DNA of 64,000 nt. Source: a virus. Its lineage: Duplodnaviria; Heunggongvirae; Uroviricota; Caudoviricetes. Of the stretch, positions 4,797-61,299 are shown piece after piece. The stretch's first letter is position 1. Every line of letters starts with the position of its first letter. The notes beneath the pieces were generated by a model. That model ran no database searches, had not been told where the DNA came from, and saw only the letters and a list, made by a program, of their open reading frames with translations. The stretch spans positions 46,179 through 110,178 of the IMG/VR virus record IMGVR_UViG_3300035492_000044. One strand, given 5' to 3'. Both the position numbers and the translations under genes were made by a program.

Positions 4797-4845
4797 GGGC
4801 GCTTACAGACGTCTAAAGCCAGTTAGGTTGGAAGGGGAATTCCCC
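4797..4845 (+). promoter_or_regulatory. Class-A conserved motif GGGCGCTTA-N9-AAAGCCAGTTARGGTGGAAG + GC hairpin (GGGGAATTCCCC)
   Basis: One of 9 near-identical copies: 4797, 16567, 22254, 28440, 32177, 57580, 61978, 62336, 63742. All on + strand, 25-60 nt upstream of a start codon. Confidence 0.6.
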
Positions 4846-12172: not shown

Positions 12173-12191
12173 GTACGGCGAAAGCCTGTTA

Positions 12192-12226
12192 GGGTAATGG
12201 CGCGAATGTCATTACCCTATTTATTT
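12192..12226 (+). terminator. terminator-like hairpin GGGTAATG..CATTACCC + TATTTATTTC, fused to a degenerate class-B motif
   Basis: The hairpin begins at the GGGT of the motif's GTTAGGGT. Confidence 0.5.
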
Positions 12227-12242
12227 CTAGGAGATATGATTC

Positions 12243-13385: not shown

Positions 13386-13387
13386 TC

Positions 13388-14266: not shown

Positions 14267-15071
14267 GATGCCAACAAGACAGAAATTAGTGATGTGTATT
14301 CTTAGTGGTGGATTCGATCCTATCCACTCTGCGCACATCGACATGATCAAAGATGCTGCAGAGAAGTATGACTTCGTCATTGTCGGTGTCAATAGTGACG
14401 AGTGGCTGACTCGCAAGAAGGGCATGAACTTCATGTCCATCAAGGATCGTATTGCAGTAGTCTCTCAATTCAAGGGAGTAACTGGTGTTCATACGTTCGA
14501 TGACTCTGACGATACAGCTAACCAGCTGATTCTGAAGATCCATGAAGAGTATGGGAATAACTACAAGATCGTCTTCGGTAATGGAGGTGATCGCGTAGCT
14601 GGTAAGACTATCCCAGAAGAAACCCTATGTAAGACTCTAGGTATCGACATCGTCGATGGCCTTGGCGGTACTACTAAGGGTAATAGCTCTTCGTGGATCC
14701 TGGGTCGCTGGTCTGACTTCGCACGTGAGGCTCAGCCAGTAGTCCGTAGATGGGGCAAGTTCTTCAGTCTGTTCAAGCAGGATGGAGTCAAGGTCAAGAA
14801 GCTGGTGATTGATTCTGGTAAGAGTATCAGTCTTCAGCTTCATCATCATCGTAGTGAGCACTGGATCGTAACTAGCGGCGCTGGTCTTTTCAGTGTAGAT
14901 GGACACGAACAATATCTGTCAGAAGGTAAGTCGGTATTCGTACCGGCATGTGCCCAGCACAAGATTACCAATACTGGCTCAATTCCTCTCGAGATCATTG
15001 AGGTTCAAACTGGCAAAATACTGTCAGAAGAGGACATCATCCGTTTCGAAACTATTGAAGGGTCTCTGTAA
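14259..15071 (+). CDS. Sugar-phosphate nucleotidyltransferase (cytidylyltransferase-like HxGH) fused to a C-terminal cupin domain
   Basis: 'SGGFDPIHSAHIDMI' nucleotidyltransferase motif. C-terminal 'HHHRSEHWIVTSGAG..VPACAQHKITNTG' is a cupin, like ManC/RfaE-type enzymes. Confidence 0.7.
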   Translation: MSEMPTRQKLVMCILSGGFDPIHSAHIDMIKDAAEKYDFVIVGVNSDEWLTRKKGMNFMSIKDRIAVVSQFKGVTGVHTFDDSDDTANQLILKIHEEYGNNYKIVFGNGGDRVAGKTIPEETLCKTLGIDIVDGLGGTTKGNSSSWILGRWSDFAREAQPVVRRWGKFFSLFKQDGVKVKKLVIDSGKSISLQLHHHRSEHWIVTSGAGLFSVDGHEQYLSEGKSVFVPACAQHKITNTGSIPLEIIEVQTGKILSEEDIIRFETIEGSL

Positions 15072-17451: not shown

Positions 17452-18456
17452 ATGAGAAATAAGCCTGCAGACATACCTTATTGTGGGGTAGATAGAGCCA
17501 AGATTCTATCAGCACGCCCAATAATTAATGCTGATGTTCTCAGAATGTACGTGTCGTGGATCAAGCAGAGAGCTCACGTATACTACATGAAAGAGATTGT
17601 CGGAGAGCCTGGTCCATGGACCACTGATCCGATTCTTAGTAAGTACAAGTTCACCAATATCCGGCGAGAACTGGATCGGGAGACTAAGTGGCTTATTGAT
17701 AATGTGATCAACAGTGATAAGCTGTCTATCCTGGATAAGGCACTCAATTGTGCATTATTCCGGTGCATCAATACTGGGCAGTACTTCCAGGAAGTCTGGC
17801 ATGGTCCACTACGCCTTAGTAATATGAAGGATTTCGATTTCAATCATCTTAATGATATGGAACGAGATTCGGAATATTCTGGACCTCTGCAGTCTAATGC
17901 GTACTTCCTTTCTCAGATGAGACGAGTGGCTAACGACCTATGCAAGAGGCAGAATGCTAGTCATCTAGCATACAGCAATACTGCTCTAGCGTACTTCATA
18001 TGGTTCCATCGCCGGACTATTGAAGATGCATTAGCAGCTGATACTCCATCTAAGGCTACGATTCTTCTGGAGACTATCCCAGGATTCGGTAAGTTCATGT
18101 CATACCAAGTGTGGGTAGACTGGACTTACATGGAAGACTACGAGTTTAGTGAAAATGAGTTCGTACTATCTGGACCAGGATGTGACCTAGGCCTGTCGTA
18201 TCTATTCAAAGACCAGGATGGCATGTCTCCAGAAGAGACTCTATTCTGGATGAGAGACAATCTAGTTAAAGTCTGCAGAGACCTTGAAATAGATTTTGAT
18301 CCTGGAGTGATTCAGAGCTACTTACCACCAGATAAACGTAACTTTGGTGTTATGCAGCACGAAAATGGTCTATGTGAGCTAAGCAAGTATTACCGTCTTC
18401 ATACAGGTGAACGTATGAGGGCAAGATATTATGCCCCTGGTACTGATAGTAAATAA
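17452..18456 (+). CDS. hypothetical protein
   Basis: ORF preceded by class-B motif 17377 and RBS. Confidence 0.4.
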   Translation: MRNKPADIPYCGVDRAKILSARPIINADVLRMYVSWIKQRAHVYYMKEIVGEPGPWTTDPILSKYKFTNIRRELDRETKWLIDNVINSDKLSILDKALNCALFRCINTGQYFQEVWHGPLRLSNMKDFDFNHLNDMERDSEYSGPLQSNAYFLSQMRRVANDLCKRQNASHLAYSNTALAYFIWFHRRTIEDALAADTPSKATILLETIPGFGKFMSYQVWVDWTYMEDYEFSENEFVLSGPGCDLGLSYLFKDQDGMSPEETLFWMRDNLVKVCRDLEIDFDPGVIQSYLPPDKRNFGVMQHENGLCELSKYYRLHTGERMRARYYAPGTDSK

Positions 18457-34556: not shown

Positions 34557-35885
34557 ATGCTCGTATCTATCGCTATTGGCGTAGTTATCGCTCTGCTGGC
34601 TCTGGCAGTTATCGTTGCATTCATGTTCCGTCGTGTAGTACCGACTAACATGGTGCATATCGTGCAGTCCTCCAAGAAGACTACGGCCTATGGTCGGGGT
34701 AAAGATGACGGCAACACCTACTATGAATGGCCGAGCTTCCTGCCATTCATCGGTGTCAATGTCACTACCTTCCCTGAGTCGATCTTCCAGGTGAACCTGT
34801 CCGACTATGAAGCCTATGATTCGGCACGTCTGCCATTCATGGTTGATGTTGGTGCATTCTTCCGTGTCGATGACGCTAGCACTGCAGCTCAGCGTGTATC
34901 CTCCTTCGGTGAACTGCAACAGCAACTGGTATCGGTACTGCAGGGTGCAGTTCGTCGTATCCTGGCTACTAACTCTCTGGAAGAGATTATGCAGGAGCGT
35001 AGCAGCTTCGGCGTACAATTCACCAATGAGGTGAAGGATCAAATCAAAGAGTGGGGTGTTCTGCCTGTCAAGACTATCGAGTTCATGGACATCCGTGACT
35101 CCAAGGGTTCTCAGGTGATTCAGAACATCATGGCTAAGGAGAAGTCTCGTATCGAGATGGAATCCCGTGTCCAGGTAGCTGAGAACATGCAGAATGCTCA
35201 GCTGAAAGAGATCGATGCTCAGCGTACTGTTGACGTTCAGCAACAGGATGCACTGCAGCAGGTAGGTATCCGTACTGCTGAGAAAGACAAGATCGTTGGT
35301 ATTGCTAAAGAGCAATCTCAGCAGGAGATCAAGGCTCAGGCCAAGATTACCACTGAGCGTTCGATGGAAGTTACCAAGGTCGAACAAGTCCGTCATGCAG
35401 AAATCGCACGTGATGTGGCTGTAGTTCATGCTGAACAGCAGGCCAAGGTAGCTGTAGTGGCAGCTGATGCTGACAAGCAGACTACCATCGTCCGTGCTGA
35501 CGGTCAGCTGGAAGCTGCTAAGCGTGAAGCTGAGGGTATCAAGGTCAATGGTCTGGCAGCAGCTGAAGCTGAGAAGGCCATGCTCATGGCACCGGTCGAT
35601 ACCCAGATTACTCTGGCGAAAGAGATCGGTGAGAATCAGGGTTATCAGCAGTACCTGATCACCATCGAGCAAGTCAAGGCCAATCAGTTCGTAGGTATCG
35701 AGATGGCGAAAGCTCTCGGCCAGTCGGATCTGAAGATCATCGCCAACTCCGGCGATATCGGTGGTGGTGTGAAGAACTTGGTAGATCTGCTGTCTCCTCA
35801 GGGCGGTACTGCTATTGGCGGTATGCTGGAAGCTCTGAAGAACACTGATGCTGGTAAGGCTCTGCTGTCGAAAGTCGGTCAGTAA
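34557..35885 (+). CDS. SPFH/Band-7 (flotillin/YqiK-like) membrane protein
   Basis: N-terminal TM 'IAIGVVIALLALAVIVAF', PHB domain, long Q/A/E-rich coiled-coil, Gly-rich C-terminus. Confidence 0.75.
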   Translation: MLVSIAIGVVIALLALAVIVAFMFRRVVPTNMVHIVQSSKKTTAYGRGKDDGNTYYEWPSFLPFIGVNVTTFPESIFQVNLSDYEAYDSARLPFMVDVGAFFRVDDASTAAQRVSSFGELQQQLVSVLQGAVRRILATNSLEEIMQERSSFGVQFTNEVKDQIKEWGVLPVKTIEFMDIRDSKGSQVIQNIMAKEKSRIEMESRVQVAENMQNAQLKEIDAQRTVDVQQQDALQQVGIRTAEKDKIVGIAKEQSQQEIKAQAKITTERSMEVTKVEQVRHAEIARDVAVVHAEQQAKVAVVAADADKQTTIVRADGQLEAAKREAEGIKVNGLAAAEAEKAMLMAPVDTQITLAKEIGENQGYQQYLITIEQVKANQFVGIEMAKALGQSDLKIIANSGDIGGGVKNLVDLLSPQGGTAIGGMLEALKNTDAGKALLSKVGQ

Positions 35886-35895
35886 GACTCCAGAA

Positions 35896-35934
35896 CGACG
35901 TTTTCATAAGTCGAAAACCTGTTAGGTTGGAAGT
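35896..35934 (+). promoter_or_regulatory. Class-B motif copy at the entrance of the tRNA island
   Basis: 'CGACGTTTTCATAAGTCGAAAACCTGTTAGGTTGGAAG'; further copies at 36155 and 36319 precede tRNAs. Confidence 0.6.
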
Positions 35935-36059
35935 GGGAATAACTGGTGCTATCAGTCTGGCAGATTAGTTCGCAACTAATTGTCAATTCACTAGTGAGAA
36001 CGAAAACGAGATCCTCAGGATAAACGTCTTCTCAAGTCAAGACTGAATTCCCACGATTT

Positions 36060-36144
36060 CCGGGTATGGTGAAATCGGTAGACACAAGAGCCTTAAACCC
36101 TCTGGACTATTGTCATGCCAGTTCGAGTCTGGCTACCCGGACCA
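36060..36144 (+). tRNA. tRNA-Leu (anticodon TAA), type II
   Basis: Acceptor CCGGGTA/TACCCGG, long variable arm, T-arm GCCAG-TTCGAGT-CTGGC, encoded CCA. Confidence 0.75.
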
Positions 36145-36359
36145 TATTTCTAAACGACGTTTTACTACGTCGAAACCCTGTTAGGGTGGAAGACGAGTGT
36201 ATTTGAGAAGGCTGGCCAGAATAGCTTCTGGTAGGGTGAACTCTCTGGAGACCGATGACGCCATGCTTCGGTAGCGCATGAAGATGATCCGTCAGTCCTT
36301 CTCCAATACAATCTAGACCGACGTCCAAATAAATCGAAACCCTGTTAGGTTGGAAGTGC

Positions 36360-36438
36360 GATTAAAAGGACCCTAGGCTAACCTCAGTAGGTCTCCCCCA
36401 GATGCTGAAGCTGGATGTCCTAGGATCCTTTTAATCTC
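36360..36438 (+). repeat. Long imperfect inverted repeat (~17 bp arms, ATTAAAAGGACCCTAGG / CCTAGGATCCTTTTAAT) forming an ~80 nt stem-loop
   Basis: Lies directly between class-B motif 36319 and tRNA-Arg. Confidence 0.5.
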
Positions 36439-36443
36439 ATTTC

Positions 36444-36520
36444 GCGTCCATAGCTCATCTGGATAGAGCAGGGGATTTCTAATCCCCTGGTGGTAGGTTC
36501 GAGTCCTACTGGACGCGCCA
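36444..36520 (+). tRNA. tRNA-Arg (anticodon TCT)
   Basis: Acceptor GCGTCCA/TGGACGC, anticodon loop TTTCTAA in stem GGGGA/TCCCC, GGTTCGAGTCC T-arm, CCA. Confidence 0.8.
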
Positions 36521-36969
36521 TATACCCGGCACTTACTGATGTCGTAGCTCGATAAACTCTAGTATCATTAGTTAGGATCGAAACCTCTACTAATGCTCTA
36601 TTAGATAAGGTTGGGTCAGTGGAGCAGTAGCCCTTACGTGGAGTGGGTATGTGTCAGAAGAGGCACTCCGCTCGATAACTGTCACGTGTGAATAATGAAT
36701 ACTATGCAGCTAGTTTTATTATTCTGGGTTTAGATGTCATGCTGCTACTCATGCATTATTTCTCCTGTTGGAGAGTGCAGGCGGAGAGGAGGCATCCTCG
36801 TAGAAGCCGAGTAGAGTCGACCACGGTCTAGCGGTGGAGGCAGTGCCCGTACTGTCATTTAGAATGATATCCTTCGGCTGTAAGGATGACGGGTAATAGA
36901 GCAAGCGGTGAGTACTAACTGCCTGCAGGACTTTGATGTGGTGTCAGAGTCCTGTGGAGTAAGTATTCT

Positions 36970-37046
36970 GCGGAATTAGCTCAGTTGGATAGAGCATCTG
37001 CCTTCCAAGCAGAGGGTCACGAGTTCGAGTCTCGTATTCCGCTCCA
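36970..37046 (+). tRNA. tRNA-Gly (anticodon TCC)
   Basis: Acceptor GCGGAAT/ATTCCGC, loop CTTCCAA, U73, CCA. Confidence 0.8.
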
Positions 37047-37050
37047 TTAT

Positions 37051-37127
37051 TGGGGTATAGCACAGTTGGTAGTTGCGTCTGACTGTTAATCAGAATGTCG
37101 TAGGTTCGAGCCCTACTACCCCAGCCA
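37051..37127 (+). tRNA. tRNA-Asn (anticodon GTT)
   Basis: Acceptor TGGGGTA/TACCCCA, loop CTGTTAA, GGTTCGAGCCC T-arm, CCA. Confidence 0.7.
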
Positions 37128-37371
37128 AATTTGGTGTTACTCCCGATCGAAAGATACTGAAACATGAAATCGTCTCCGCACGATGTAGGCCTTACGAGGT
37201 CATGATCAGCCAAGAGATGACAGGTCCGAGTAGATTAGTAGCACCGTCTTAATCACGCAGAGGCGGACTGCATCGAGAGCCATTAGAAAAGTGTAACTCC
37301 ACGAGAACCTCAGACTCTGGACTACATGACCGGCACTAGCTTCACTCGATCTAATAATTAAACGCAACCAT

Positions 37372-37456
37372 GCGGATGTGGTGAAATTGGTAGACACACC
37401 TGGTTTAGGTCCAGACGCCTACGGGCGTGAGAGTTCGAATCTCTCCATCCGCACCA
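37372..37456 (+). tRNA. tRNA-Leu (anticodon TAG), type II
   Basis: Acceptor GCGGATG/CATCCGC, long variable arm, loop TTTAGGT, CCA. Confidence 0.65.
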
Positions 37457-37711
37457 TATTCGAGACCCCACTAGTCAGCCGAAGTACTGGTGGAGATTAG
37501 TGTCATGAGCTAGTCTGCCCAGGTCTCGAATCAAAACAGGAGAGTCCTTAGATGGTGCTATCTAGCCAGTTGCATTCGTAGTCTACCCGTCGGCTACATT
37601 GAATGCCTAAGTGACTCTCCGCCTATTATGGGGTATGCCTCGTCTAAAGCATTGGGATCTGTGATGATACCAGGGTGGGTAACTACGTAGTCCCACATAC
37701 TCCACCAGTTT

Positions 37712-37787
37712 GCCGGTATAGCTCAGCTGGTAGAGCAGCTGACTTGTAATCAGCAGGTCGTGAGTTCGAATCCCACTGCCGGCACCA
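37712..37787 (+). tRNA. tRNA-Thr (anticodon TGT)
   Basis: Acceptor GCCGGTA/TGCCGGC, stem GCTGA/TCAGC with loop CTTGTAA, CCA. Confidence 0.8.
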
Positions 37788-37799
37788 TATTGTGGTTAC

Positions 37800-37916
37800 T
37801 GGTTCCTATCATTATGTGGTTGGAAGCAAAAAGTCTAGTAATCACAACCTAATTGCTGTAATCCCTCTTGAAGTGAAACATGATGGACGGGAGTTCGACT
37901 CTCCCCAGCTCCACCA
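37800..37916 (+). ncRNA. ssrA: tmRNA acceptor piece (3' half of a permuted ssrA): T-arm + 3' acceptor strand + CCA
   Basis: 'GGACGGGAGTTCGACTCTCCCCAGCTCCACCA' ends 37916 and closely matches the E. coli tmRNA 3' end '..GGGTTCAACTCCC.CCAGCTCCACCA'. No matching 5' acceptor strand upstream. Left boundary is approximate. Confidence 0.65.
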
Positions 37917-37986
37917 TAGTTACCCTGGTAGTGACAGCCTTTGAGTGCGGTCTTAATCTACCATGGCTATCAGAGTAACTATGATG

Positions 37987-38240
37987 GGGCTGATCTGGAT
38001 TCGACATTGTGCGTAGTGAATAGAGGCAGCACAGGTAGATGACTGCCTGAAGTTGAGCCACCTTGCGGAAGGTCTGGGCTCAGCTGAAATAGCATAAATC
38101 AAGTAACTGCCAACGATGAATCGTTCGCACCTCTGGCTCTGGTTGCTTAAGTAACCTGATGCTGGTCGGGTATCTTCGGATCGCTCTCCTGCTATAGCTA
38201 ATACCTATAGTTGCCTCGGAACAGAAAGAGAGCACCTATT
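37987..38240 (+). ncRNA. ssrA: tmRNA coding piece (5' acceptor strand GGGGCTGATCTGGATTCGAC..., tag ORF ANDESFAPLALVA-stop)
   Basis: 'GGGGCTGATCTGGATTCGAC' at 37987 matches the tmRNA 5' end 'GGGGCUGAUUCUGGAUUCGAC'. Tag frame 'GCC AAC GAT GAA TCG TTC GCA CCT CTG GCT CTG GTT GCT TAA' at 38109-38150. Lies downstream of the CCA end, so the gene is circularly permuted. 3' boundary approximate. Confidence 0.7.
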
Positions 38241-38257
38241 TCATTAGTGAGGACTAA

Positions 38258-38467
38258 ATGGAACATCACATCCTTAATCTCACTGCCCAGAAGGGTCGCC
38301 TGTATTACTACCAGGGTAATTTCTACCATCCGCTTGATCTGGTAGGTAACTCGGTAGGTCTAGTGAAGAGAGGAATTCGAGAGTTCCTCGCTAAGAATAA
38401 AGATATGGTAGCTCGTGACAGAGCTAGCCCAGACTACAAGACTCTGGTTGAATTATCAGGTCTTTAA
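38258..38467 (+). CDS. hypothetical small protein
   Basis: ORF within the tRNA island. Confidence 0.3.
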   Translation: MEHHILNLTAQKGRLYYYQGNFYHPLDLVGNSVGLVKRGIREFLAKNKDMVARDRASPDYKTLVELSGL

Positions 38468-38570
38468 CTAATCCTGTCGTTGGGACTACCCAGTAGCCAT
38501 GAACTTCTGGGCGTCAGTAGAAGATACTGGACCAGTACGAAACCTGGTAATAATTAATTAGGAGAGCAGC

Positions 38571-38774
38571 ATGATGCTATCTGAGTTGGGTCAACGTATC
38601 TTGGCCCACTATGTTGAAAGACGTAGCGGTAAGTCGGGTAACTACATCCCTACTGACTGTGATCGTAAAGCAGCTCAACTAGCTGCTGAGAATACCACGG
38701 ATCATCTACGTGGAGCTACTGTTATGGCTCGGATGTATGATGACAAGCTTGCTGGTAAGGCTCCTATTAAGTAG
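38571..38774 (+). CDS. hypothetical small protein
   Basis: ORF with RBS 'ggagag'. Confidence 0.3.
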   Translation: MMLSELGQRILAHYVERRSGKSGNYIPTDCDRKAAQLAAENTTDHLRGATVMARMYDDKLAGKAPIK

Positions 38775-38917
38775 GAGCCGACTCGTACTTTCTGATGAGT
38801 AGCCCGAGTATAAAAGGCACGAAACTGTAATAGTCAAAGAGCCACTGATGGTGGCCAGTTAGTAACTCACACTGTAGCTAACTGAATTACGTTTGCAGAG
38901 GACCGTCAATCTGAAGC

Positions 38918-39625
38918 ATGAAGTGTACGCCTATGGTACTGACACTACCTTGGAAGTTGTACTGTGCTGGCGCTATACCAGCACTTAATACAGTGCAGCC
39001 TACAATCTATTCTTGCCTCGAACTGGATGAGTCCACAGAGGATGCGCACTTGAGTAGATTGTGGGAAGTACTGGAGATAATCATGACCAGAGAAGATTTA
39101 ATAAATCTATCCAAGATACCTCCTTCAAATATATCAGTAGCAAAGTCTCTTGAAGCTAGAGGTTATCCATATTATGGTAACCTAAAATCTTCATATCCGA
39201 TTCATTGGGCCAGCTTCTCTGCTATGCACGGAAGAGTTAGAGATTTTGGCCTTGATTGTGATTTTCCTAGAAATGTGGATGGATTTATTGATTTTATCCT
39301 TTATGTCGGACCTGTTCCTGGAGATATGATTAGGCCAACTCTTGGTAGATCAGATCATTCAATTGGGTACTTAAAGGGTAATTTTAAGTGGCAGGAGTCC
39401 AGTGATAATACATCGGAGTCTGCTACAAGAAACAAGACTGTAGTCAAGATTCAAGAGTGTCGTTTAAATAGGTTGGAAGACCTAGTAAGTAGTCTAGGGG
39501 ATAAAGTTGAAATAGACTCCTTATTTACGACCTCTCACTTTAGATATAAGAAGGATTTGTACAGGCTACTTAGAAGTAGGGGATATAAAATATCTTCTGA
39601 CTATAAAGTAGCTAGTAAAGTTTAA
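38918..39625 (+). CDS. HNH homing endonuclease (paralog 1)
   Basis: 'LGRSDHSIGYLKGNFKWQ' resembles the HNH 'RIDNxxGYxxxNxRW' motif; AT-rich codon usage differs from the neighbours; embedded between tRNAs. Confidence 0.5.
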   Translation: MKCTPMVLTLPWKLYCAGAIPALNTVQPTIYSCLELDESTEDAHLSRLWEVLEIIMTREDLINLSKIPPSNISVAKSLEARGYPYYGNLKSSYPIHWASFSAMHGRVRDFGLDCDFPRNVDGFIDFILYVGPVPGDMIRPTLGRSDHSIGYLKGNFKWQESSDNTSESATRNKTVVKIQECRLNRLEDLVSSLGDKVEIDSLFTTSHFRYKKDLYRLLRSRGYKISSDYKVASKV

Positions 39626-39626
39626 T

Positions 39627-39716
39627 GGAGAGTTGGCCGAGTGGTTTAAGGCACCTGACTTGAAATCAGACGGATCAGCAATGGTCCCCAGGGTTCGAAT
39701 CCCTGGCTCTCCACCA
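39627..39716 (+). tRNA. tRNA-Ser (anticodon TGA), type II
   Basis: Acceptor GGAGAG../..CTCTCC, long variable arm, loop CTTGAAA, GGTTCGAATCC T-arm, CCA. Confidence 0.7.
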
Positions 39717-40045
39717 TATTGACCTAAGAAGATTACACTCATCATGGGTGGGATTAGCCTCTTATCTTCTTGGTCAATATTCTCTGTTACTCACAAGTAC
39801 CTTAACTAACAACTGCACAGACGTTAGCCAACCAGATGTGAGTAATCGAGGTTCCACTCTCATTCCGAGAGTGTTGATAAGGGGGTGATCCTTATCTCCG
39901 GCTGCAGCTACGGATACTGCAGAAAGGCTAGTTAATGTCGTGAGACATCGACAGGCCTACCGTTGTACCAGAGGCGAATAGGGTAGCTCCCGTTCCAGCA
40001 CTGCTTTGCTGGATAGCCTCTTCTTATACCTAAGCAGAGGTTAGT

Positions 40046-40585
40046 ATGAACATACCTGAAATAAAATATGATACCGAGTACCTAATAAAAATAGCTTTCC
40101 ATAATTTTGATTTATGGAGCCATCACGAGCAAATGGCCGTTAAGTCTATGGAAGCTAGAGGTATTCCATGTTATGGTTTATTACCTAAAATGTTTCCGAT
40201 TCATCGGAACCGTTTTAGAAATATGCATAATAGAATAGACGAACAGTGTTTAGAGACTTCGTTTAAAAGAGATTTAGAAGGTTTTGCTAAATTTGTGGAA
40301 TATCTTGGACCAGTTCCTACTGAAATGAAAGTCCCGTCTTTAGGAAGAATCGATCATTCTAAAGGTTATGTAATAGGCAACTTTACATGGCAGGAACTTA
40401 GAGATAATATAGAAGAAATGGCCAATAGAACCAAGTCTTCAGATAATAAGTTCTGGGTAAACAGCCCAGGATGCACAGGTTATAGATGGTATAACGACGG
40501 ACAGACTGAATTCTTTCTGAGAGAAAATAATCCTTTAATTGAAGACGCTGGTCTAGTTAGAGGTCGGTTTTCTAATCGACGTTAA
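40046..40585 (+). CDS. HNH homing endonuclease (paralog 2)
   Basis: 'SLGRIDHSKGYVIGNFTWQ' HNH motif; clear paralogy to 38918-39625 ('EARGIPCYG', 'LGPVPTEMKVPSLGR'). Confidence 0.55.
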   Translation: MNIPEIKYDTEYLIKIAFHNFDLWSHHEQMAVKSMEARGIPCYGLLPKMFPIHRNRFRNMHNRIDEQCLETSFKRDLEGFAKFVEYLGPVPTEMKVPSLGRIDHSKGYVIGNFTWQELRDNIEEMANRTKSSDNKFWVNSPGCTGYRWYNDGQTEFFLRENNPLIEDAGLVRGRFSNRR

Positions 40586-40638
40586 TCCATCAGAAGCCAC
40601 TAATGCTGTGGAAAACTCTGCAAAAATTTAGGTGACTT

Positions 40639-40932
40639 ATGAATAAGGTAGTTAGATTCCTTAATGCCATTCGTAGGTCACACCCAGATATGGTCGAGTT
40701 GTATACTCAGGGCCAATGCTACAACTTCCATCTTATCCTCCGAGAGGTCTTCCCAGATGCTGTTGCCTGGTATGACCCAGTTGAGGGCCATGTGTACTCC
40801 AAGATTGGAGACTGCTGGTACGATATAAGAGGAAGACATTTCAAACTGGATCCACGAGCTAGTATTCTGGATCATCGTATGTCCGACAAACCTCATCGCT
40901 GGGGTGGACGTGATAGAAGAAGACTAAGGTGA
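40639..40932 (+). CDS. hypothetical protein
   Basis: ORF. Confidence 0.4.
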   Translation: MNKVVRFLNAIRRSHPDMVELYTQGQCYNFHLILREVFPDAVAWYDPVEGHVYSKIGDCWYDIRGRHFKLDPRASILDHRMSDKPHRWGGRDRRRLR

Positions 40933-40935
40933 GTT

Positions 40936-41502
40936 ATGGCTCGTAAATCATTCAAGGACATGACCCAGTTTCAAGTAGGCCAGCACTTCTGTGAATGTGA
41001 TCTAGGCCAGGTACTCGAGTTCGCTATCACTACCGAACCTGTAGTTAAGGACGTGGATGGTCGACGCCAGATTACCTGGACAGGTCGTGACGTGAAGACT
41101 CAGCGGGATATTGAGTATCTCGTTACTGAGGGCTTCGAACATTATGGCCCTAAGATCTACGACCCAGCTGACATGTTCAGCCCAGAGGATGTAGCTCTTG
41201 CTCTCCGACAGTTGCGCCAGTCTCCTAATGTCCTTCAGAAGGTCGAGGTAGATCCTGGTGCACCTGGTGGTGATGAGACGGTAGTTAGCTGTATAGTTCC
41301 TATTAATGGAAAAGATCATCACCTAGTCCTACCGGTTACATTGCATTATCGTGGTATCTGCAGACTGGCTGGATATAATGACGACAGACTGTACACCATT
41401 ACCTACGTCTCTCAGCAAGGTAGTGGTATAGTCGGGCCTAATGACTCTCTCCAGATTACAGCTGGTACAAAGATAAATGTGGCATTGACCAACAATGCAT
41501 AA
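40936..41502 (+). CDS. hypothetical protein
   Basis: ORF. Confidence 0.4.
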   Translation: MARKSFKDMTQFQVGQHFCECDLGQVLEFAITTEPVVKDVDGRRQITWTGRDVKTQRDIEYLVTEGFEHYGPKIYDPADMFSPEDVALALRQLRQSPNVLQKVEVDPGAPGGDETVVSCIVPINGKDHHLVLPVTLHYRGICRLAGYNDDRLYTITYVSQQGSGIVGPNDSLQITAGTKINVALTNNA

Positions 41503-41546
41503 CGACTTCCAGATAGTCCGAAACCCTGTTAGGGTGGAAGTCGGAA

Positions 41547-41888
41547 ATGGAGAGAGTTATGCTTGGTAAACCCATGAAGTCGATTAAGGTTCAATATGAG
41601 CCTGGCTGGAATGGTGGAACTTGGTCTGTAGTCAGTCGGAAGATTGATGCAGTATCTAAAGTCCACGATCTTCCTATGGATGTCAAGGTCAAGATACGGG
41701 GTATCCTAATCGACGCCTGTAAATCTACTCGAAAGGGTACTGACTATGACATGGGCCATCAGTACGACTGGGAATCCTGGGACCTGACTCTTAAGGTCAA
41801 GACTGAACTGGGTGTAATGGAGTTCAGTTTCTATGAGTATGCCCAGAAGCATCCTCGAGTCAAGACCTGGGAGATCTTCTACGAATAA
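41547..41888 (+). CDS. hypothetical protein
   Basis: ORF after class-B motif 41503. Confidence 0.4.
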   Translation: MERVMLGKPMKSIKVQYEPGWNGGTWSVVSRKIDAVSKVHDLPMDVKVKIRGILIDACKSTRKGTDYDMGHQYDWESWDLTLKVKTELGVMEFSFYEYAQKHPRVKTWEIFYE

Positions 41889-41966
41889 GGGCCTCTAGCA
41901 TAACTGGTAAATGCGTCCGGCTCATAACCGGAGGACAGATCGGTTCGAATCCGACGGGGCCCACCA
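41889..41966 (+). tRNA. tRNA-Met/Ile2 (anticodon CAT)
   Basis: Acceptor GGGCCTC/GGGGCCC, stem TCCGG/CCGGA with loop CTCATAA, GGTTCGAATCC T-arm, CCA. G1-C72 pair means it is not an initiator. Confidence 0.75.
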
Positions 41967-42484
41967 CACATCCTTGTCAAAAGTGCCTACTGGGAACAAA
42001 TAATCCAAGAGGCTGGAATGGCGTAATGGCCTACTGCACACATGTTGACCCGAATGTGTTAAGACATGAAATAATCGGGTCCTGAATCTAAATAACACGA
42101 GGTGTGTATTATGTTGCTAGCAGCCTACTGCGCTGCGGTGATTATGATGCATACTCAGATTCCAACGATAGACATCTGCACTGCGCCGTCTCTGTACGCC
42201 GCTCCTGATGTCATTCTGCGGAATATCGTGCAACCTGCCATAGTCAAATTATCCTCACCTGATAAGAAGACTATTGGTGTTTTCATAATCGACCTGACTA
42301 TCCCGGGACCTGTCGAGGTATTCCGGGACATGGCTAGACGGCCAACTAATAGTACGGATCGAATATGAAGCTCGGGTTGTCGCTGAGTGAGCAGCTAATC
42401 CCGCCAGCAAATTATCATGAAGGTCAGATACTTATCCCCCATATCCGTGTAGCTATGGCAGGGTGAGATAAGTCAGTGCCTAGT

Positions 42485-44449: not shown

Positions 44450-45514
44450 ATGCACGTAGTAAAGGCACGTGGCATTAATGATGCCGTCAAGCAACTGATC
44501 CATGATGTTCACCATTTCGGTACTGAGACTAAGTCCGATAAGGGGACAGTGAAGGAAATCAATCGTCTACTACTGGAGATCGAGCGGCCTGTCAATCGAT
44601 ATCTGTGCATCCCTGGACGTAAGAACAACATCTACGCCATGATCGCCGAGACCATGTGGGTACTGTCAGGCACCAATCTGATTGAACCATTGCTGTCGGC
44701 AGTTCTCCCAAGAGCTAAGGACTTTAGTGATGATGGAGTTTCCTGGAGAGCTGGCTACGGTCCTCGACTCTATAAGGATGGGCAGCTCGATACTGCTATT
44801 AATCGTCTTAGGAAGTCACCTGCTACTCGCCAGTCTGTTATCTCGATTTACGATCCTGCTCTTGATACCGATAGTGCAATTCACGCGCAGCTTGGTGTAT
44901 CTGCTAGTAAGGATGTACCTTGCAACAATATGCTGTATCTCTATACTGACCCTGATAATCGCAATAGACTCAATCTGAGTGTGATTCAGCGCAGTGGTGA
45001 TGCACTATGGGGCTTTGGTAGCATCAATATCTTCGAGTGGTCGTTCCTCCAGGAAGTGGTGGCATCTGTTCTGGGTATGGATGTGGGTACTTACGCCCAC
45101 TACTGCAACAATACCCATATCTACTACGACAAGCCGGTAGTGCTCCGCCAAGTCCAGGATATCGTCGCCAATACTGATGCCGTATCGCCGAATATGGCTA
45201 CTGGAATGCAGATGGACATTGGTGTCATTCACAGTGCTCACGATATCCGCATGTTCTTCAATCTGGTATGCCAGGTTATGGGACGAGTGGCTATCAAAGA
45301 GCTCGACCGTGAAGCAGGCATGTCTGCTATTCGTAATGTCTTCGAGACTTACCGAGTAGCTCGCACTACTAACAAGCTGTGGCACTACTGCGAACTGGTA
45401 GTAGCTCAGTTGACTCCGGAAGAAGAGGAACAGATCGATCTCTCTGGGTATTCTCAGGACTTGATCAATGCTGTATGCTGCAGCACGTTCACTAAGTTCA
45501 AGTACATTATTTAA
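44450..45514 (+). CDS. Thymidylate synthase family enzyme (ThyA or dUMP hydroxymethylase) with ~80 aa C-terminal extension
   Basis: Catalytic Cys 'DVPCNNMLYLY' (vs 'APCHAFFQFYV'), 'IQRSGDALWGFGSINIFEWSF' (vs '[20 protein letters not shown]'). Asn at the pyrimidine-discriminating position suggests a uracil substrate. Confidence 0.85.
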   Translation: MHVVKARGINDAVKQLIHDVHHFGTETKSDKGTVKEINRLLLEIERPVNRYLCIPGRKNNIYAMIAETMWVLSGTNLIEPLLSAVLPRAKDFSDDGVSWRAGYGPRLYKDGQLDTAINRLRKSPATRQSVISIYDPALDTDSAIHAQLGVSASKDVPCNNMLYLYTDPDNRNRLNLSVIQRSGDALWGFGSINIFEWSFLQEVVASVLGMDVGTYAHYCNNTHIYYDKPVVLRQVQDIVANTDAVSPNMATGMQMDIGVIHSAHDIRMFFNLVCQVMGRVAIKELDREAGMSAIRNVFETYRVARTTNKLWHYCELVVAQLTPEEEEQIDLSGYSQDLINAVCCSTFTKFKYII

Positions 45515-58239: not shown

Positions 58240-59694
58240 ATGCGTCCTGTACTTAAGATCAAACTTATGTCAGACAGCAATATTAAGTCTGTCAGTTCTG
58301 GGGAAATTGAGTCCTACCGTCTGTACAACTTCAAGTACAAGACACCTCGCCCAGTACCGGGTGGTCTATTCTGCGAGAAGATCTTTGGTCCTATCCAGGA
58401 TTACACCTGTGCCTGCGGTATCCGTCACTCTATTGCCTTGAAAGTATGCGAGACCTGCGGTGTGCCTATTCTTAGTGCACGTGAACGCCGTAATCGTATG
58501 GGGCATATCAATTGTCGCCTCCCCTACCTAAATCCAATTGCCTCTGACCTAGTCGGCGGTATCTTCGGAGTTAGTGGTAAGGCTCTCCTCGATGTGGCAG
58601 TAGGTACCTCGCGGTACTACATAGAGGAGGCAGCTGGTTCAGGTCCATTGATCAGTTCGAGCGGTGTGCGTTATCGCATTCAAATCGTAGGTAAGGAAGA
58701 TCCTGAGTGGGAGAACTCCGATTACTCGATTTACTCGCTTCTCTCTGACCTGATTGACCTGGACATTAGTGGTGAGGAGACACTCTCCAAGCACAAAAAT
58801 CCTGATGTTCGTCGGTATTATGAAAACGGGTTCACTTCGGTCCTGAATTTCTTCAATACCTCAGTTCTTGTTCCGCCACCTCTCCACCGAGATATCTCCA
58901 TCTCGAATGGTGAGATTTCGTATCACCCCACTAATATCCTCTACCTTCGACTCATTCGAGTAGCTCATCGATTCCAGGTTATTATGGAATCGGAGAACGA
59001 GGATATGTTGGTTCTACTCCGTGAAGAAGCTCGAGTTCTCCAGCATCTGGTGAATTCAGTTTACACTGAAGGAGCTAAGGACCATCGCGGTAACGCTATC
59101 CCAGCCATTATGGACAAACTGGGAGGTAAAGAGGGTCTGTTTCGTGGTAATATGCTAGGCAAGCGTATTGACTACTCCGGACGTTCCTCGATTACTACAG
59201 GTCCCGATCTCCCGATTGATACCTGCGCTGTACCGTTCAAAATGATGTACACTCTGCTTGAACCCCATATCCTCGGAAGGCTAGTTACTCTGGCAGAAGA
59301 GCGATTCAATGGGGAGGCTAATCCGTACACTGTGGCTTCTCGTTGGTATAAGAGGCAGACCACTGAGGCGGTTGAAGCCTGCTATGACCTTGCCAAGGAG
59401 GCTATTGTAATCCTTAACCGAGCTCCATCGCTCCATCGCTATTCGGTAATGGGATTTAAGGTAGTTCTTCACTCTGGTAAGAGTATCCGGATACCTCCGC
59501 TAATCTGCTCCCCATTCAACGCAGACCATGATGGCGACACCATGGCGATTCACCTGCCGTTGTCTAAGCAGGCACTAGCTGAGTTCCCTCTGTATTCGGT
59601 TCAGCATAATCTGATGAGTTCTATCGATTATGACACCCCGAATATGTCTCCGTCCCACGAGGCTGTAGTGGGTCTGTACCAGCTCACCCTGTGA
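58240..59694 (+). CDS. Multisubunit RNA polymerase beta' subunit, N-terminal half
   Basis: Zn-binding 'DYTCACGIRHS..CETCGV', 'ARERRNRMGHINCRLPYLNPI' (vs 'RRERMGHIELASPTAHIW'), catalytic 'NADHDGDTMAIHLPLS' (vs 'NADFDGDQMAVHVPLT'). Confidence 0.9.
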   Translation: MRPVLKIKLMSDSNIKSVSSGEIESYRLYNFKYKTPRPVPGGLFCEKIFGPIQDYTCACGIRHSIALKVCETCGVPILSARERRNRMGHINCRLPYLNPIASDLVGGIFGVSGKALLDVAVGTSRYYIEEAAGSGPLISSSGVRYRIQIVGKEDPEWENSDYSIYSLLSDLIDLDISGEETLSKHKNPDVRRYYENGFTSVLNFFNTSVLVPPPLHRDISISNGEISYHPTNILYLRLIRVAHRFQVIMESENEDMLVLLREEARVLQHLVNSVYTEGAKDHRGNAIPAIMDKLGGKEGLFRGNMLGKRIDYSGRSSITTGPDLPIDTCAVPFKMMYTLLEPHILGRLVTLAEERFNGEANPYTVASRWYKRQTTEAVEACYDLAKEAIVILNRAPSLHRYSVMGFKVVLHSGKSIRIPPLICSPFNADHDGDTMAIHLPLSKQALAEFPLYSVQHNLMSSIDYDTPNMSPSHEAVVGLYQLTL

Positions 59695-59775: not shown

Positions 59776-61299
59776 ATGCTGGTAAATAACGTTCATTATT
59801 TCAACAATCCTCAAGCAATTCACGAAGCGTATGAGAACGGGTTGATTACTTACCATACCGAGGTTAAGTATAAGTTCCGGGACACTACTGAGTGGGTTGA
59901 CATTACTTATGGGCGATTCCTGATCTGGGAATTCACTGGGTACCTCCCAGAGGGTGCCCTTAGTAAGAAGGGTGTGAAGAATCTCGTTATCCACATTAAC
60001 CGGGAGTACAGCCCTGAAGTAGCTGTTAAGAAGATGAAACAGCTACAAGATCTGGCTTTCAAGATCGCCACTGAGAAGGGAATTACCCTTGGGATGGACG
60101 ACTTCCACCCAATGCCTGGTACTAACGAGATCATGGCAGAAGAGCAGGTCCGTATCTCGGCTCTTCCTATCGAAGAGCGAGCTGAAGAGTGGGATACCGT
60201 TATTAACGGCCAGGTAGATCGCTGGATTAACGAGGTCGATCGAAATAACCCTCTCTACGCCATGTACCAGTCAGGTGCTCGAGTAACTCCCTCCCAGATA
60301 CGCCAGATGGTTGTTGGTAAGGGTCTTCTCACTAAGATGAACGGTGAGATTAACCCGGATGCAGTTACTCAGTCTCTGGCAACAGGACTTAGTGTGTACA
60401 ATTACTTCATGACATGTGGGCCTGCTCGGAGAGGTCTGGCTAACAACTTCTTCGTAGTTCCTGCCTCTGGATACTTCGCACGGCAGCTGGTTAATGCTGC
60501 GCGTGACCTTACCATCGTAGAAGAGGACTGCGGTACTCGAGAGGGGGTAGAGGTCAAGTCGAAATACGCAGTAGGTCGCTACCTTGCAGGTACATCCGAA
60601 CTCTGGACTAAGGACAGCAAGACTGACATGCCTTACCTCAAGGTGAGGAGTCCTCTTACCTGCTCCTCTGTTCTAGGTGGACTCTGCGCTAAGTGCTGTG
60701 GACAGGATCCTGCCACTAACGAGGATTGGAGAGTAGGTTTCGGTATGGGGACAGCGTCGGCTCAGCATATCTCGGAACCAGCTACTCAGGCCGGTCTACG
60801 TGGTAAGCATACCTCAGGTTCGGTTACTCTGGCGGATTACCGTAACTCGGTTGATAACGTACTTCCGAACATCATCAGGGCTTTCGGTGGTATCGGTACT
60901 CAGTTCGTAACTACTGAGGGAGCTACTTCGAAGACCCTATACGACTTCAGCAAGACTGAGAAGGATCCTATTACTGCAGCTGAGAAGCTCTGCCAGCACA
61001 TTAAGGACCTGTTCGTGGAGGGTGGTCTGGGTGTAGCTAGCATCCACATCGAGGTAATTATTCGCTCCTGTATTGAGCAGGTAATTAAGAAAGATGGTGA
61101 AGTAGGTCTTCGGTCTCATGGAGATGAGGGCCGAATCAAGTGCCTCAACGTGAGTCAGGTTCCTCTTAATTACCCGAGCTGGCTGAAGTCTATCAGCTTC
61201 GGCTACACCTCCAGCCGACTCCGTAAGGCAGTATGCCGGATGGAGAAGACTTACGGCGTAATGACGGAGCAGATTATGACAACTGCGTTCCAACACTAA
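59776..61299 (+). CDS. Multisubunit RNA polymerase beta' subunit, C-terminal half
   Basis: 'VPASGYFARQLVNAARDLTIVEEDCGT' (vs '[26 protein letters not shown]') and trigger-loop 'SEPATQAGLRGKHTSG' (vs 'GEPGTQLTMRTFHIGG'). Confidence 0.85.
   Translation: MLVNNVHYFNNPQAIHEAYENGLITYHTEVKYKFRDTTEWVDITYGRFLIWEFTGYLPEGALSKKGVKNLVIHINREYSPEVAVKKMKQLQDLAFKIATEKGITLGMDDFHPMPGTNEIMAEEQVRISALPIEERAEEWDTVINGQVDRWINEVDRNNPLYAMYQSGARVTPSQIRQMVVGKGLLTKMNGEINPDAVTQSLATGLSVYNYFMTCGPARRGLANNFFVVPASGYFARQLVNAARDLTIVEEDCGTREGVEVKSKYAVGRYLAGTSELWTKDSKTDMPYLKVRSPLTCSSVLGGLCAKCCGQDPATNEDWRVGFGMGTASAQHISEPATQAGLRGKHTSGSVTLADYRNSVDNVLPNIIRAFGGIGTQFVTTEGATSKTLYDFSKTEKDPITAAEKLCQHIKDLFVEGGLGVASIHIEVIIRSCIEQVIKKDGEVGLRSHGDEGRIKCLNVSQVPLNYPSWLKSISFGYTSSRLRKAVCRMEKTYGVMTEQIMTTAFQH

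Follow-up and report, generated by a model that had tools for sequence, protein, structure and literature searches.

The stretch of DNA analyzed here (the window) comprises 64,000 nucleotides from a virus of the class Caudoviricetes (IMG/VR record IMGVR_UViG_3300035492_000044, positions 46,179 to 110,178), and the subject of this study is an island of RNA genes located at positions 35886-42100 of the window. In addition to eight tRNA genes and a permuted transfer-messenger RNA (tmRNA), the island includes two AT-rich open reading frames (ORFs) that likely encode HNH-like nucleases, four copies of a promoter-like repeat, and three conserved RNA elements that lie in the spacers between the genes, namely an alanine-tRNA-like RNA of 78 nt, a predicted hammerhead ribozyme, and a motif of three hairpins that carries a Shine-Dalgarno-like sequence.

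RNA genes of the island and the promoter-like repeat

ARAGORN returned nine RNA genes in the window, all of them on the + strand between positions 36060 and 41966: the permuted tmRNA and eight tRNAs, which are exactly those listed in the initial annotation of this DNA. The eight tRNAs were also returned by the Rfam model RF00005 with scores of 46.9-72.3 bits (gathering score, 29), and CCA is encoded in all of them. The RNA genes and the copies of the repeat are arranged as follows:

35889-35942, + strand: promoter-like repeat, copy 1 (core CGAAAACCTGTTAGGTTGGAAG at 35912-35933, upstream box ACGACGTT)
36060-36144, + strand: tRNA-Leu (UAA), from ARAGORN and Rfam (46.9 bits)
36148-36201, + strand: promoter-like repeat, copy 2 (core at 36171-36192)
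36312-36365, + strand: promoter-like repeat, copy 3 (core at 36335-36356)
36444-36520, + strand: tRNA-Arg (UCU), from ARAGORN and Rfam
36970-37046, + strand: tRNA-Gly (UCC), from ARAGORN and Rfam
37051-37127, + strand: tRNA-Asn (GUU), from ARAGORN and Rfam
37372-37456, + strand: tRNA-Leu (UAG), from ARAGORN and Rfam
37712-37787, + strand: tRNA-Thr (UGU), from ARAGORN and Rfam
37824-38241, + strand: permuted (two-piece) tmRNA, from ARAGORN and Rfam (RF04321, RF01850)
39627-39716, + strand: tRNA-Ser (UGA), from ARAGORN and Rfam
41496-41549, + strand: promoter-like repeat, copy 4 (core at 41519-41540)
41889-41966, + strand: tRNA with anticodon CAU, from ARAGORN and Rfam, of the elongator type with a G1-C72 pair

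The anticodons UAA, UCU, UCC, UAG, UGU, and UGA are readers of A-ending codons. The CAU tRNA has the C4-G69 and C5-G68 pairs, which are published TilS determinants, and this suggests that it is a tRNA-Ile2, which would read AUA after lysidine modification, rather than a tRNA-Met. Altogether, seven of the eight anticodons correspond to A-ending or rare codons (UUA, AGA, GGA, CUA, ACA, UCA, and probably AUA). These cognate codons represent 5-20% of their families in 79 phage ORFs, and 18-67% in the two nuclease genes (39083-39625 and 40046-40585), where AGA accounts for 67% of the Arg codons, AUA for 54% of Ile, ACA for 42% of Thr, and UUA for 30% of Leu. The composition of the set fits the idea that these tRNAs would serve codons that are rare in a GC-richer host.

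It had also been proposed that the tRNAs restore cleaved host tRNAs; in this case, the set would be an anti-defence device that provides nuclease-resistant copies of tRNAs destroyed by host anticodon nucleases. There is a precedent for this in phage T5, whose tRNA-Lys and tRNA-Tyr rescue infection from tRNA-cleaving defences, and tRNA-Asn(GUU) and tRNA-Arg(UCU) belong to classes that are cut by colicins E5 and D. However, the island lacks tRNA-Lys and tRNA-Tyr, the tRNAs known for that role, and no RNA-repair gene (RNA ligase or polynucleotide kinase) was detected among the window ORFs scanned. Moreover, all but one of the eight anticodons belong to the classic group that decodes A-ending or rare codons, and T4 has six of them in its own tRNA set (Leu-UAA, Gly-UCC, Ser-UGA, Thr-UGU, Ile-CAU, and Arg-UCU). 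Since the set reads A-ending codons, as in T4, codon supply is favoured, and the restoration of cleaved tRNAs, for which no support was obtained, is considered unlikely.

Downstream of most tRNA 3' ends and of the acceptor piece of the tmRNA, the sequence UAU or UAG is present (positions 36145, 36521, 37457, 37788, 37917, and 39717), and at several of these 3' ends a long-range helix that closes the next spacer domain starts at once. The combination may represent a shared processing signal.

The tmRNA, whose permuted organization had been proposed in the initial annotation, was called by ARAGORN as well as by two Rfam models: tmRNA_permuted (RF04321; 104 bits, gathering score 47) and beta_tmRNA (RF01850; 86.6 bits, gathering score 84). 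Its acceptor piece, CAGCUCCACCA, ends at 37916 with the CCA at 37914-37916 and lies upstream of the coding piece, which begins at 37986 with GGGGCUG; an intervening segment (37917-37985) separates them, and the third pair of the acceptor stem is a G·U. The tag ORF (38109-38150) encodes ANDESFAPLALVA and ends in a stop codon. The inverted repeat I2 (37906-37931 with 37967-37992) corresponds to the acceptor stem plus a hairpin of the precursor. No SmpB-like gene was found among the window ORFs scanned, and this partner is presumed to come from the host. In the 3' part of the tmRNA call, after the tag stop, a segment of 41 nt (38188-38228) shares 85% identity with DNA that lacks annotation in Pseudomonas phages of ~93 kb (PaMx31, SM1), and a related RNA may exist in these phages. 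tmRNAs of phages are already known, also in two pieces (PMC4131195, PMC9004378); the two-piece form is uncommon, being present in only 53 of 18,146 phage genomes (PMC9004378). As in the methylophage Melnitz (PMC9004378), the permuted ssrA of the window is carried by a lytic phage and adjoins tRNA genes; in contrast to Melnitz, no riboswitch is attached to it, and the ANDESFAPLALVA tag and the phage lineage are different.

The 'class-B motifs' that had been noticed among the tRNA genes correspond to a 54-nt direct repeat (family D1) that is present in four copies in the island. The 22-nt core of the repeat, CGAAACCCTGTTAGGKTGGAAG, occurs 12 times in the window (starting at 4813, 5215, 8970, 9128, 33048, 34494, 35912, 36171, 36335, 41519, 43654, and 52482), exclusively on the + strand, whereas no occurrence is expected by chance. 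The alignment of the copies revealed a consensus of ~40 nt formed by ACGACGTT, ~10 nt, and then the core, and the copies outside the island are usually located 25-60 nt 5' of start codons. Sites resembling sigma-70 promoters are scarcer in the island than expected by chance (6 versus 11.7). Judging from its position and copy number, the repeat probably serves as a promoter for the RNA polymerase that the phage itself encodes. A small hairpin could also be formed in the core (ACCCU-GUU-AGGGU).

Conserved RNA elements in the spacers

The four spacers described in the initial annotation (36521-36969, 37128-37371, 37457-37711, and 39717-40045) coincide exactly with gaps between the RNA genes, and none of them contains a plausible ORF. 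They had been presented as structured and as possible sources of small RNAs or processing substrates. The z-scores of their folding energies were -3.15, -0.07, -4.30, and -4.95, respectively. When the whole + strand of the window was analyzed in segments of 200 nt, the mean z was -1.36 (SD 1.38), with 12% of the segments below -3 and 4% below -4, and the segments below these values were mostly coding; native segments were more stable than their dinucleotide shuffles almost everywhere. Since the whole genome is shifted to stable folds, z-scores alone cannot flag structured RNAs in this DNA, and folding energy was dropped as proof of structure, given that the values of the spacers are not exceptional for this genome. 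What stands of the proposal are conserved elements. The spacers were concatenated and compared by blastn with 50,697 phage genomes, and the short significant matches obtained led to three of them, which recur in unrelated phages with covariation support and do not reach an Rfam threshold:

37630-37707, + strand: alanine-tRNA-like RNA of 78 nt, conserved in phages, 4 nt upstream of tRNA-Thr
38782-38842, + strand: predicted hammerhead ribozyme with stem I open (type I), from a descriptor, homologs, and covariation
39878-39957, + strand: three-hairpin motif with a Shine-Dalgarno-like sequence, from phage homologs and covariation

An Rfam scan at gathering thresholds and five permissive scans of the spacers yielded nothing except a 12-bit match to a hammerhead model. 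A generic scan for an acceptor stem plus NCCA gave ~45 background matches per strand and was uninformative by itself. The possibility that the spacers are decayed tRNAs obtained no support, as permissive scans revealed no weak tRNA matches.

The alanine-tRNA-like RNA has a 7-bp acceptor stem (GGGGUAU/AUACUCC) with a G3·U70 pair, a discriminator A, and an encoded CCA. The place of the D-region is occupied by a single-stranded CGUCUAAA, which is conserved; there is also a variable hairpin, and a T-like arm with a 5-bp stem (GUGGG-UA-ACU-ACGU-AGU-CCCAC) carries an invariant sequence of 12 nt, UAACUACGUAGU, instead of the T-loop. The 3' half of this RNA matches unannotated DNA of Acinetobacter phage Ab1-TPeters, Alteromonas phage AD45-P1, and Klebsiella N4-like phages, and an 18-mer taken from it recovers 14 IMG/VR loci. 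In an alignment of 11 distinct sequences of 78-92 nt (A6), the G3·U pair is kept in all 11 and the ACCA end is invariant. The combination of G3·U70 and A73 is the alanine identity set, common to tRNA-Ala and tmRNA. RNAalifold predicted 22 pairs from this alignment, 12 of them with compensatory changes; 90.5% of the cells are paired, versus 35-47% when the partners were slid, and the covariation score of 0.458 (at most 0.123 in controls) was reached by none of 500 shuffles. The covariance model built for it (R1) found a single copy in the window, with 71.8 bits. In bacterial genomes, the 18-mer had only three matches, which consist of those 18-20 bases alone without the rest of the RNA; in the collections searched, this RNA is phage-restricted. 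Seven of the 11 members are on the same strand as the tRNA genes of their own locus, and four of these, including that of the window, lie within 20 nt of a tRNA gene.

This RNA was not called by ARAGORN, gave no Rfam match at E<=10 in a scan of 98 nt, and has no canonical T- or D-loop. Because of the non-canonical T-loop and the lack of recognition by the tRNA and tmRNA models, we did not file it under either class. It resembles tRNA-Ala and the tRNA-like domain of tmRNA in its GGGG 5' end, the G3·U70 pair, the discriminator A, and the CUCCACCA 3' end, and differs from them in having UAACUACGUAGU for the T-loop and CGUCUAAA for the D-region. It is also similar to the domain-only tmRNA of mycobacteriophage DS6A (PMC4131195) in that it lacks a message part as well as a conserved anticodon loop. 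The lack of recognition, together with the missing canonical loops, could mean that this RNA is not functional and represents either a tRNA-Ala pseudogene in decay or an integration site, of which it would be the half derived from a tRNA. However, at least 11 divergent forms of it exist in unrelated phage groups, in which the acceptor and T-like stems covary, the 12-nt loop is invariant, and CGUCUAAA is conserved, features that a pseudogene would lose; besides, both strands of the acceptor stem are present, which is at odds with an attachment-site fragment. We thus consider either form of relic very unlikely. Since its end architecture is the same as that of a tRNA, this RNA would be expected to be matured like one and, given its alanine identity set, to be chargeable with alanine.

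The second element, the hammerhead, is located downstream of the tmRNA and of two small ORFs, and its parts are the following (all on the + strand):

38782-38785 (CUCG) with 38805-38808 in loop II (CGAG): pseudoknot
38788-38791 with 38836-38839: stem I
38792-38798: core CUGAUGA
38799-38820: stem II hairpin
38821-38823: core GAA
38824-38834: stem III hairpin
38835: C17

All the residues of the catalytic core are present (C3 U4 G5 A6 N7 G8 A9, G12 A13 A14, A15.1-U16.1, and H17), with C17 in a classic GUC triplet. The pairs adjacent to the core (G38799-C38820, U38791-A38836, and A38824-U38834), a criterion used for phage hammerheads (PMC3088659), are intact. Stem II has one bulged A, and stems I and III are 4 bp each. 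The type-I descriptor gave this as the single full match on either strand of the window (128 kb in total), when 0.035 are expected per shuffled strand. A 43-nt match spanning CUGAUGAG...CGAAAC was found in 17 Erwinia Agricanvirus jumbo phages, whose hammerheads have an insertion of ~110 nt in stem III, and a pattern scan of viral sequences revealed a fourth independent sequence in an IMG/VR contig (L064), where the element directly follows the CCA of a tRNA-Arg(UCU). The core does not vary among the four sequences (window, Ea35-70, AH06, and L064), in contrast to stems I and III and the pseudoknot, which covary:

Stem I: window, UUUC/GAAA; Ea35-70, CCUCA/UGAGG; AH06, GUACUCC/GGAGUAC (7 bp); L064, AAAUUU/AGAUUU
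Stem III: window, ACUG/UAGU; Ea35-70, a long helix (form ACGGG../..CCCGU) whose 11th pair is A-U; AH06, the same helix with G-C as the 11th pair; L064, ACCC/GGGU
Pseudoknot: window, CUCG/CGAG; Ea35-70, GUCG/CGAC; AH06, GUCU/AGAC; L064, GUCC/GGAC

In the genome of Erwinia phage Ea35-70, the region is a gene-free stretch of ~920 nt (1893-2815) that contains a tRNA-like element without CCA (~2342-2422) and, ~80 nt downstream, the homologous hammerhead; both are unannotated in the record.

The match to the Rfam model Hammerhead_3 was only 12 bits (gathering score, 48.5), with E = 6.5 even in a scan of 141 nt, and the Erwinia homolog has no Rfam match. In addition, minimum free energy (MFE) folding prefers a different structure, stems I and III are short, stem II contains the bulged A, and CTGANGA is common in the coding DNA of this genome. 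From these data, it could be argued that the sequence is a chance match, or the inactive relic of an element with another function. Against this, 13 of 13 core positions fit the consensus with the core-adjacent pairs intact, the only full descriptor match of the window falls in non-coding DNA, and the core has been retained in four lineages, with compensatory changes in stems I and III and in the pseudoknot. Hence, we assign little probability to a chance match or a relic. Cleavage by the hammerhead is predicted between 38835 and 38836.

Hammerheads of phages and prophages are already known and have been proposed to cut polycistronic RNAs into units; pseudoknots of loop II are typical of natural hammerheads (PMC3088659). 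The element of the window shares with those described by Perreault et al. (2011, PMC3088659) the canonical core, the pseudoknot between loop II and the stem I region, and an intergenic location in a polycistronic transcript; in contrast to them, this subgroup is missed by the Rfam models, sits in tRNA islands, and in L064 is fused to the 3' end of a tRNA. Ribozymes beside phage tRNAs have been reported as well (PMC10879173): the HDV-like theta ribozymes of Kienbeck et al. (2024) are also small self-cleaving RNAs within tRNA arrays, cut exactly at the tRNA 3' end, and were proposed to free RNA processing from host RNases (PMC10879173). The hammerhead would likewise make processing independent of host RNases, but it belongs to a different class, and its predicted cut is ~50-70 nt further downstream, which suggests that it would separate transcripts rather than form a mature tRNA end. 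No HDV-like or theta ribozyme was matched in the permissive Rfam scans of the spacers.

The third element is formed by three hairpins (+ strand):

39881-39887 with 39893-39899: H1
39902-39907 with 39917-39922: H2
39926-39929 with 39954-39957: H3, with an inner stem (39935-39939/39944-39948) and a GUGA cap

H1 contains UAAGGAGGUGAUCC, a complement of 13-14 nt to the 3' end of the 16S rRNA. In the A-to-G variants UAAGGGGGUGAUCC (the window, 39878-39891) and UAAGGAGGUGGUCC (one IMG/VR group), the pairing would be kept through G·U. No start codon was found at a usable distance after this Shine-Dalgarno-like sequence. The motif is 80.6% identical over 70 nt to a sequence of the Pseudomonas T7-like phage LUZ100 (E = 3e-6), where it starts 10 nt downstream of tRNA-Asn and overlaps 'terminator T15', a 3'-end region whose annotation is experimental. 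It is also present on 13 IMG/VR contigs, after tRNA-Asn, tRNA-Arg, or a coding gene. RNAalifold recovered the three hairpins with 22 pairs, six of which show compensatory changes, and 97% of the cells of the alignment are paired versus 28-48% when slid. The motif has no Rfam match. Most likely, it is an element for RNA 3' ends or stability, or one that interacts with the ribosome; we rank translation initiation below these roles. In the LUZ100 record (454-553), the 5' end of tRNA-Asn is at the centre of 'terminator T14', and the 3' end mapped there may reflect processing by RNase P instead of termination.

The rest of the spacer DNA, and other structures of the island, are listed below:

36353-36443, + strand: long stem-loop (inverted repeat I1) with 25-nt arms, 88% complementary, in the leader abutting tRNA-Arg
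36521-36969, + strand: non-coding spacer of 449 nt, unexplained (z = -3.15)
37128-37371, + strand: non-coding spacer of 244 nt, unexplained and not unusually structured (z = -0.07)
37457-37629, + strand: non-coding stretch of 173 nt, unexplained, that folds as two hairpin domains of ~75 nt
39717-39779, + strand: 16-bp hairpin that starts right after the CCA of tRNA-Ser, with agreement of the MFE and centroid structures

The long stem-loop corresponds to the inverted repeat of ~80 nt previously placed at 36360-36438, which proved to be real, with arms at 36353-36377 and 36419-36443; the region 36145-36443 has a fold z-score of -5.04. Neither this stem-loop nor the hairpin at 39717-39779 has a homolog or an Rfam match in anything searched, and for the three unexplained stretches, no match was obtained in Rfam, in the phage database, or in the fetched loci. 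All of them may be RNAs specific to this lineage, or else structures that belong to leaders or trailers or that take part in processing. Downstream of the CAU tRNA, an intergenic segment of 44 nt (42039-42082) is 81-87% identical (E = 5e-3) to intergenic DNA of Ackermannviridae-like phages of Salmonella, Klebsiella, and Escherichia.

In view of these stretches, an alternative is that the island has no functional RNA apart from the tRNAs and the tmRNA. The spacers would then be filler, made up of tRNA genes in decay, of what is left of earlier insertions of homing endonucleases, or of precursor RNA destined for degradation, and the conserved pieces would be hitch-hiking fragments spread by phage recombination. 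In accordance with this view, three stretches have no homolog, Rfam match, or exceptional folding energy, relatives found through the flanking SPFH gene do not have the island, and even very distant phages have almost the same H1 and H2 in the three-hairpin motif, an outcome expected from horizontal transfer. On the other hand, the three elements keep their pairing through compensatory changes while their sequences diverge, which argues for selection on RNA structure and not drift, and the alanine-tRNA-like RNA keeps G3·U70 and ACCA in 11 of 11 sequences. A translated search did not reveal nuclease-like remnants in the spacers, although this is a weak test that covered only the fetched loci. 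The filler explanation has an appreciable chance of being correct, yet we regard it as the less probable option. The earlier suggestion that the spacers encode small RNAs or processing substrates is supported for part of the spacer DNA, where the three conserved structured elements lie; ~950 nt have no homologs, Rfam match, or unusual folding energy.

Nuclease genes and phage genome

The coding part of the island comprises the following ORFs:

38258-38467, + strand: ORF of 69 aa, no family
38571-38774, + strand: ORF of 67 aa, no family
39083-39625, + strand: HNH-like endonuclease, paralog 1, 180 aa, whose stop abuts tRNA-Ser
40046-40585, + strand: HNH-like endonuclease, paralog 2, 179 aa
40639-40932, + strand: YunG-like phage protein of 97 aa (Pfam PF24591, 7e-24; phrog_4814)
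40936-41502, + strand: ORF of 188 aa (phrog_11618 on the N-terminal part), without homologs in a large protein database
41547-41888, + strand: ORF of 113 aa with a weak GH-E (HNH/EndoVII superfamily) match below the Pfam cut-off

Although the ORF of paralog 1 is open from the ATG at 38918, its start is probably the ATG at 39083, because a GGAG ribosome-binding site, the onset of the homology, and a drop in GC content coincide there. The two paralogs are 50% identical over 101 aa, and their genes have a GC content of 35-40%, compared with 47-50% around them. An exhaustive profile search gathered a family of 289 representatives, with the core G-R-x-D-H-S-x-G-Y-x-x-G-N-F-x-W-Q-E-x-x-D-N. Among 51 family members, phrog_8790 ('restriction endonuclease') matches 28 (best, 1.7e-10), phrog_3377 ('HNH endonuclease') matches 15 (best, 2.6e-7), and phrog_374, 314, and 655 match a few; NUMOD3 repeats, typical of homing endonucleases, are present in four. 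At the profile level, the family is thus remotely similar to others with HNH or homing endonuclease annotations. In contrast, neither of the two proteins nor any of the 51 members is matched by the Pfam HNH models, no sequence match in the PDB was obtained for the two proteins, even with a profile search against the sequences of solved structures, and the Foldseek matches to HNH enzymes were not significant. This sets the paralogs apart from PacI, I-HmuI, and the phage HNH homing endonucleases. The description of these ORFs as two AT-rich HNH genes inserted like the mob elements of T4 was, therefore, correct as regards AT-rich paralogs, while the HNH/homing label corresponds to remote similarity and is plausible by analogy. 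Considering that the insertions are AT-rich, paralogous, and intergenic, they are most likely free-standing genes for HNH-type homing endonucleases that would have invaded the island.

All the genes in the window are oriented rightward. The window also encodes a family A DNA polymerase, which is 36-39% identical to the enzymes of Ralstonia phage RP13 and Acinetobacter phage Ab1-TPeters, topoisomerase II subunits, ribonucleotide reductase, and a beta-prime RNA polymerase subunit split into two genes (58240-59694 and 59776-61299). In addition, we observed genes for a 5-hmdU DNA kinase (17452-18456) and a thymidylate-synthase homolog (44450-45514), and a block of sugar-nucleotide enzymes (9173-15071). 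The split beta-prime subunit suggests a large lytic phage of the jumbo type with its own multisubunit RNA polymerase, and the kinase, the thymidylate-synthase homolog, and the sugar-nucleotide genes indicate that its thymidine is probably hypermodified and possibly glycosylated.

The same phage is present in the Logan run SRR11791770 (100% identity over the island) and on a 110-kb JGI contig, and the protein look-up retrieved only the same phage (L007, 100% identical). No close relative was found in the collections searched: megablast and blastn of the island against phages gave tRNA matches only, searches with the 188-aa and YunG-like ORFs led to no related loci, and scans with the promoter core gave only single chance matches. 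For the SPFH/flotillin-like gene just upstream of the island (34557-35885), 1,950 homologs were obtained at E<=1e-30, the majority of them from phage-like contigs; in the loci of these homologs that were inspected (L001-L013), no other genes are in common with the window, and the island is absent. The nearest homolog of this gene (72%, L011) is flanked by tRNA-Arg, tRNA-Met, and tRNA-Arg.

Proposed expression of the island and its significance

Taken together, these results lead us to propose, with reasonable confidence, that the region is a translation-RNA island of a large lytic phage, expressed according to the following scheme. The three tandem copies of the repeat at the head of the island would drive strong rightward transcription of long precursors, with a fourth copy at 41519. 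Host RNase P would cleave the 5' end of each tRNA, as expected from established tRNA biology, and host endo- and exonucleases would trim the A/U-rich trailers that follow the encoded CCA ends. The products would be eight tRNAs, the two pieces of the tmRNA, and the 78-nt alanine-tRNA-like RNA. The hammerhead would cut the precursor at 38835/38836, leaving 2',3'-cyclic phosphate and 5'-OH ends; the upstream block, with tRNAs, the tmRNA, and the two small ORFs, would thereby be detached from the nuclease mRNA and tRNA-Ser on its 3' side. The three-hairpin motif, placed in the leader of the second nuclease gene, would mimic a perfect ribosome-binding site. Finally, the tRNAs would supply readers of A-ending or rare codons, on which the inserted AT-rich genes lean very heavily.

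Several of the observations described above weigh against this proposal. The promoter role of the repeat is deduced only from its position and copy number; the hammerhead falls below the Rfam threshold and is not the preferred MFE structure; the Pfam and Foldseek comparisons do not identify the nuclease proteins as HNH enzymes; and the z-scores of the spacers are within the genome background. Furthermore, with ~950 nt of spacer unexplained, the island is not fully accounted for, and the nearest relatives by the flanking flotillin-like gene do not have a syntenic island.

As a whole, the island is of a known kind. In T4, the tRNA cluster has eight tRNA genes, encodes the stable RNAs named 'species 1 and 2', and harbours segB, a homing endonuclease gene; the tRNA region of T5 includes HNH endonucleases. 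The island resembles both in the polycistronic tRNA array, which host RNase P would process here as well, in the extra small and presumably stable RNAs that are co-encoded, and in the free-standing endonuclease genes between tRNA genes. It differs from them by the addition of a two-piece tmRNA, a hammerhead, and the three-hairpin motif; with respect to T4, its putative promoters are phage-specific rather than sigma-70-like, its endonuclease family is not that of SegB (GIY-YIG), and there is no sequence relationship between the two islands. Compared with Rfam 15 and the papers searched, the alanine-tRNA-like family, the three-hairpin motif, and the association of this hammerhead subgroup with tRNA islands are new.

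A bolder reading is that the 78-nt RNA is a new phage-specific mimic of tRNA or tmRNA, without an anticodon and chargeable by AlaRS, and that the three-hairpin motif binds the 3' end of the 16S rRNA, both being part of a module for the takeover of translation. We hold this only tentatively and consider it rather doubtful. If true, the 78-nt RNA could engage SmpB or stalled ribosomes beside the phage tmRNA, or take part in another process that depends on Ala-tRNA, and the three-hairpin motif could recruit or sequester 30S subunits; neither RNA family would have a described counterpart.

Phage tRNA clusters are usually annotated as tRNAs plus junk. In this island, the 'junk' holds three conserved RNA elements that covary across jumbo, N4-like, and T7-like phages, are absent from Rfam, and are open to simple biochemical tests. 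The hammerhead would represent the second class of ribozyme in phage tRNA arrays, after the theta ribozymes, and the three-hairpin motif provides a testable link to the anti-Shine-Dalgarno sequence of the ribosome. The alanine-tRNA-like RNA, which keeps the exact alanine identity set and discards the tRNA elbow, is a candidate for a new phage route to the translation machinery of the host.

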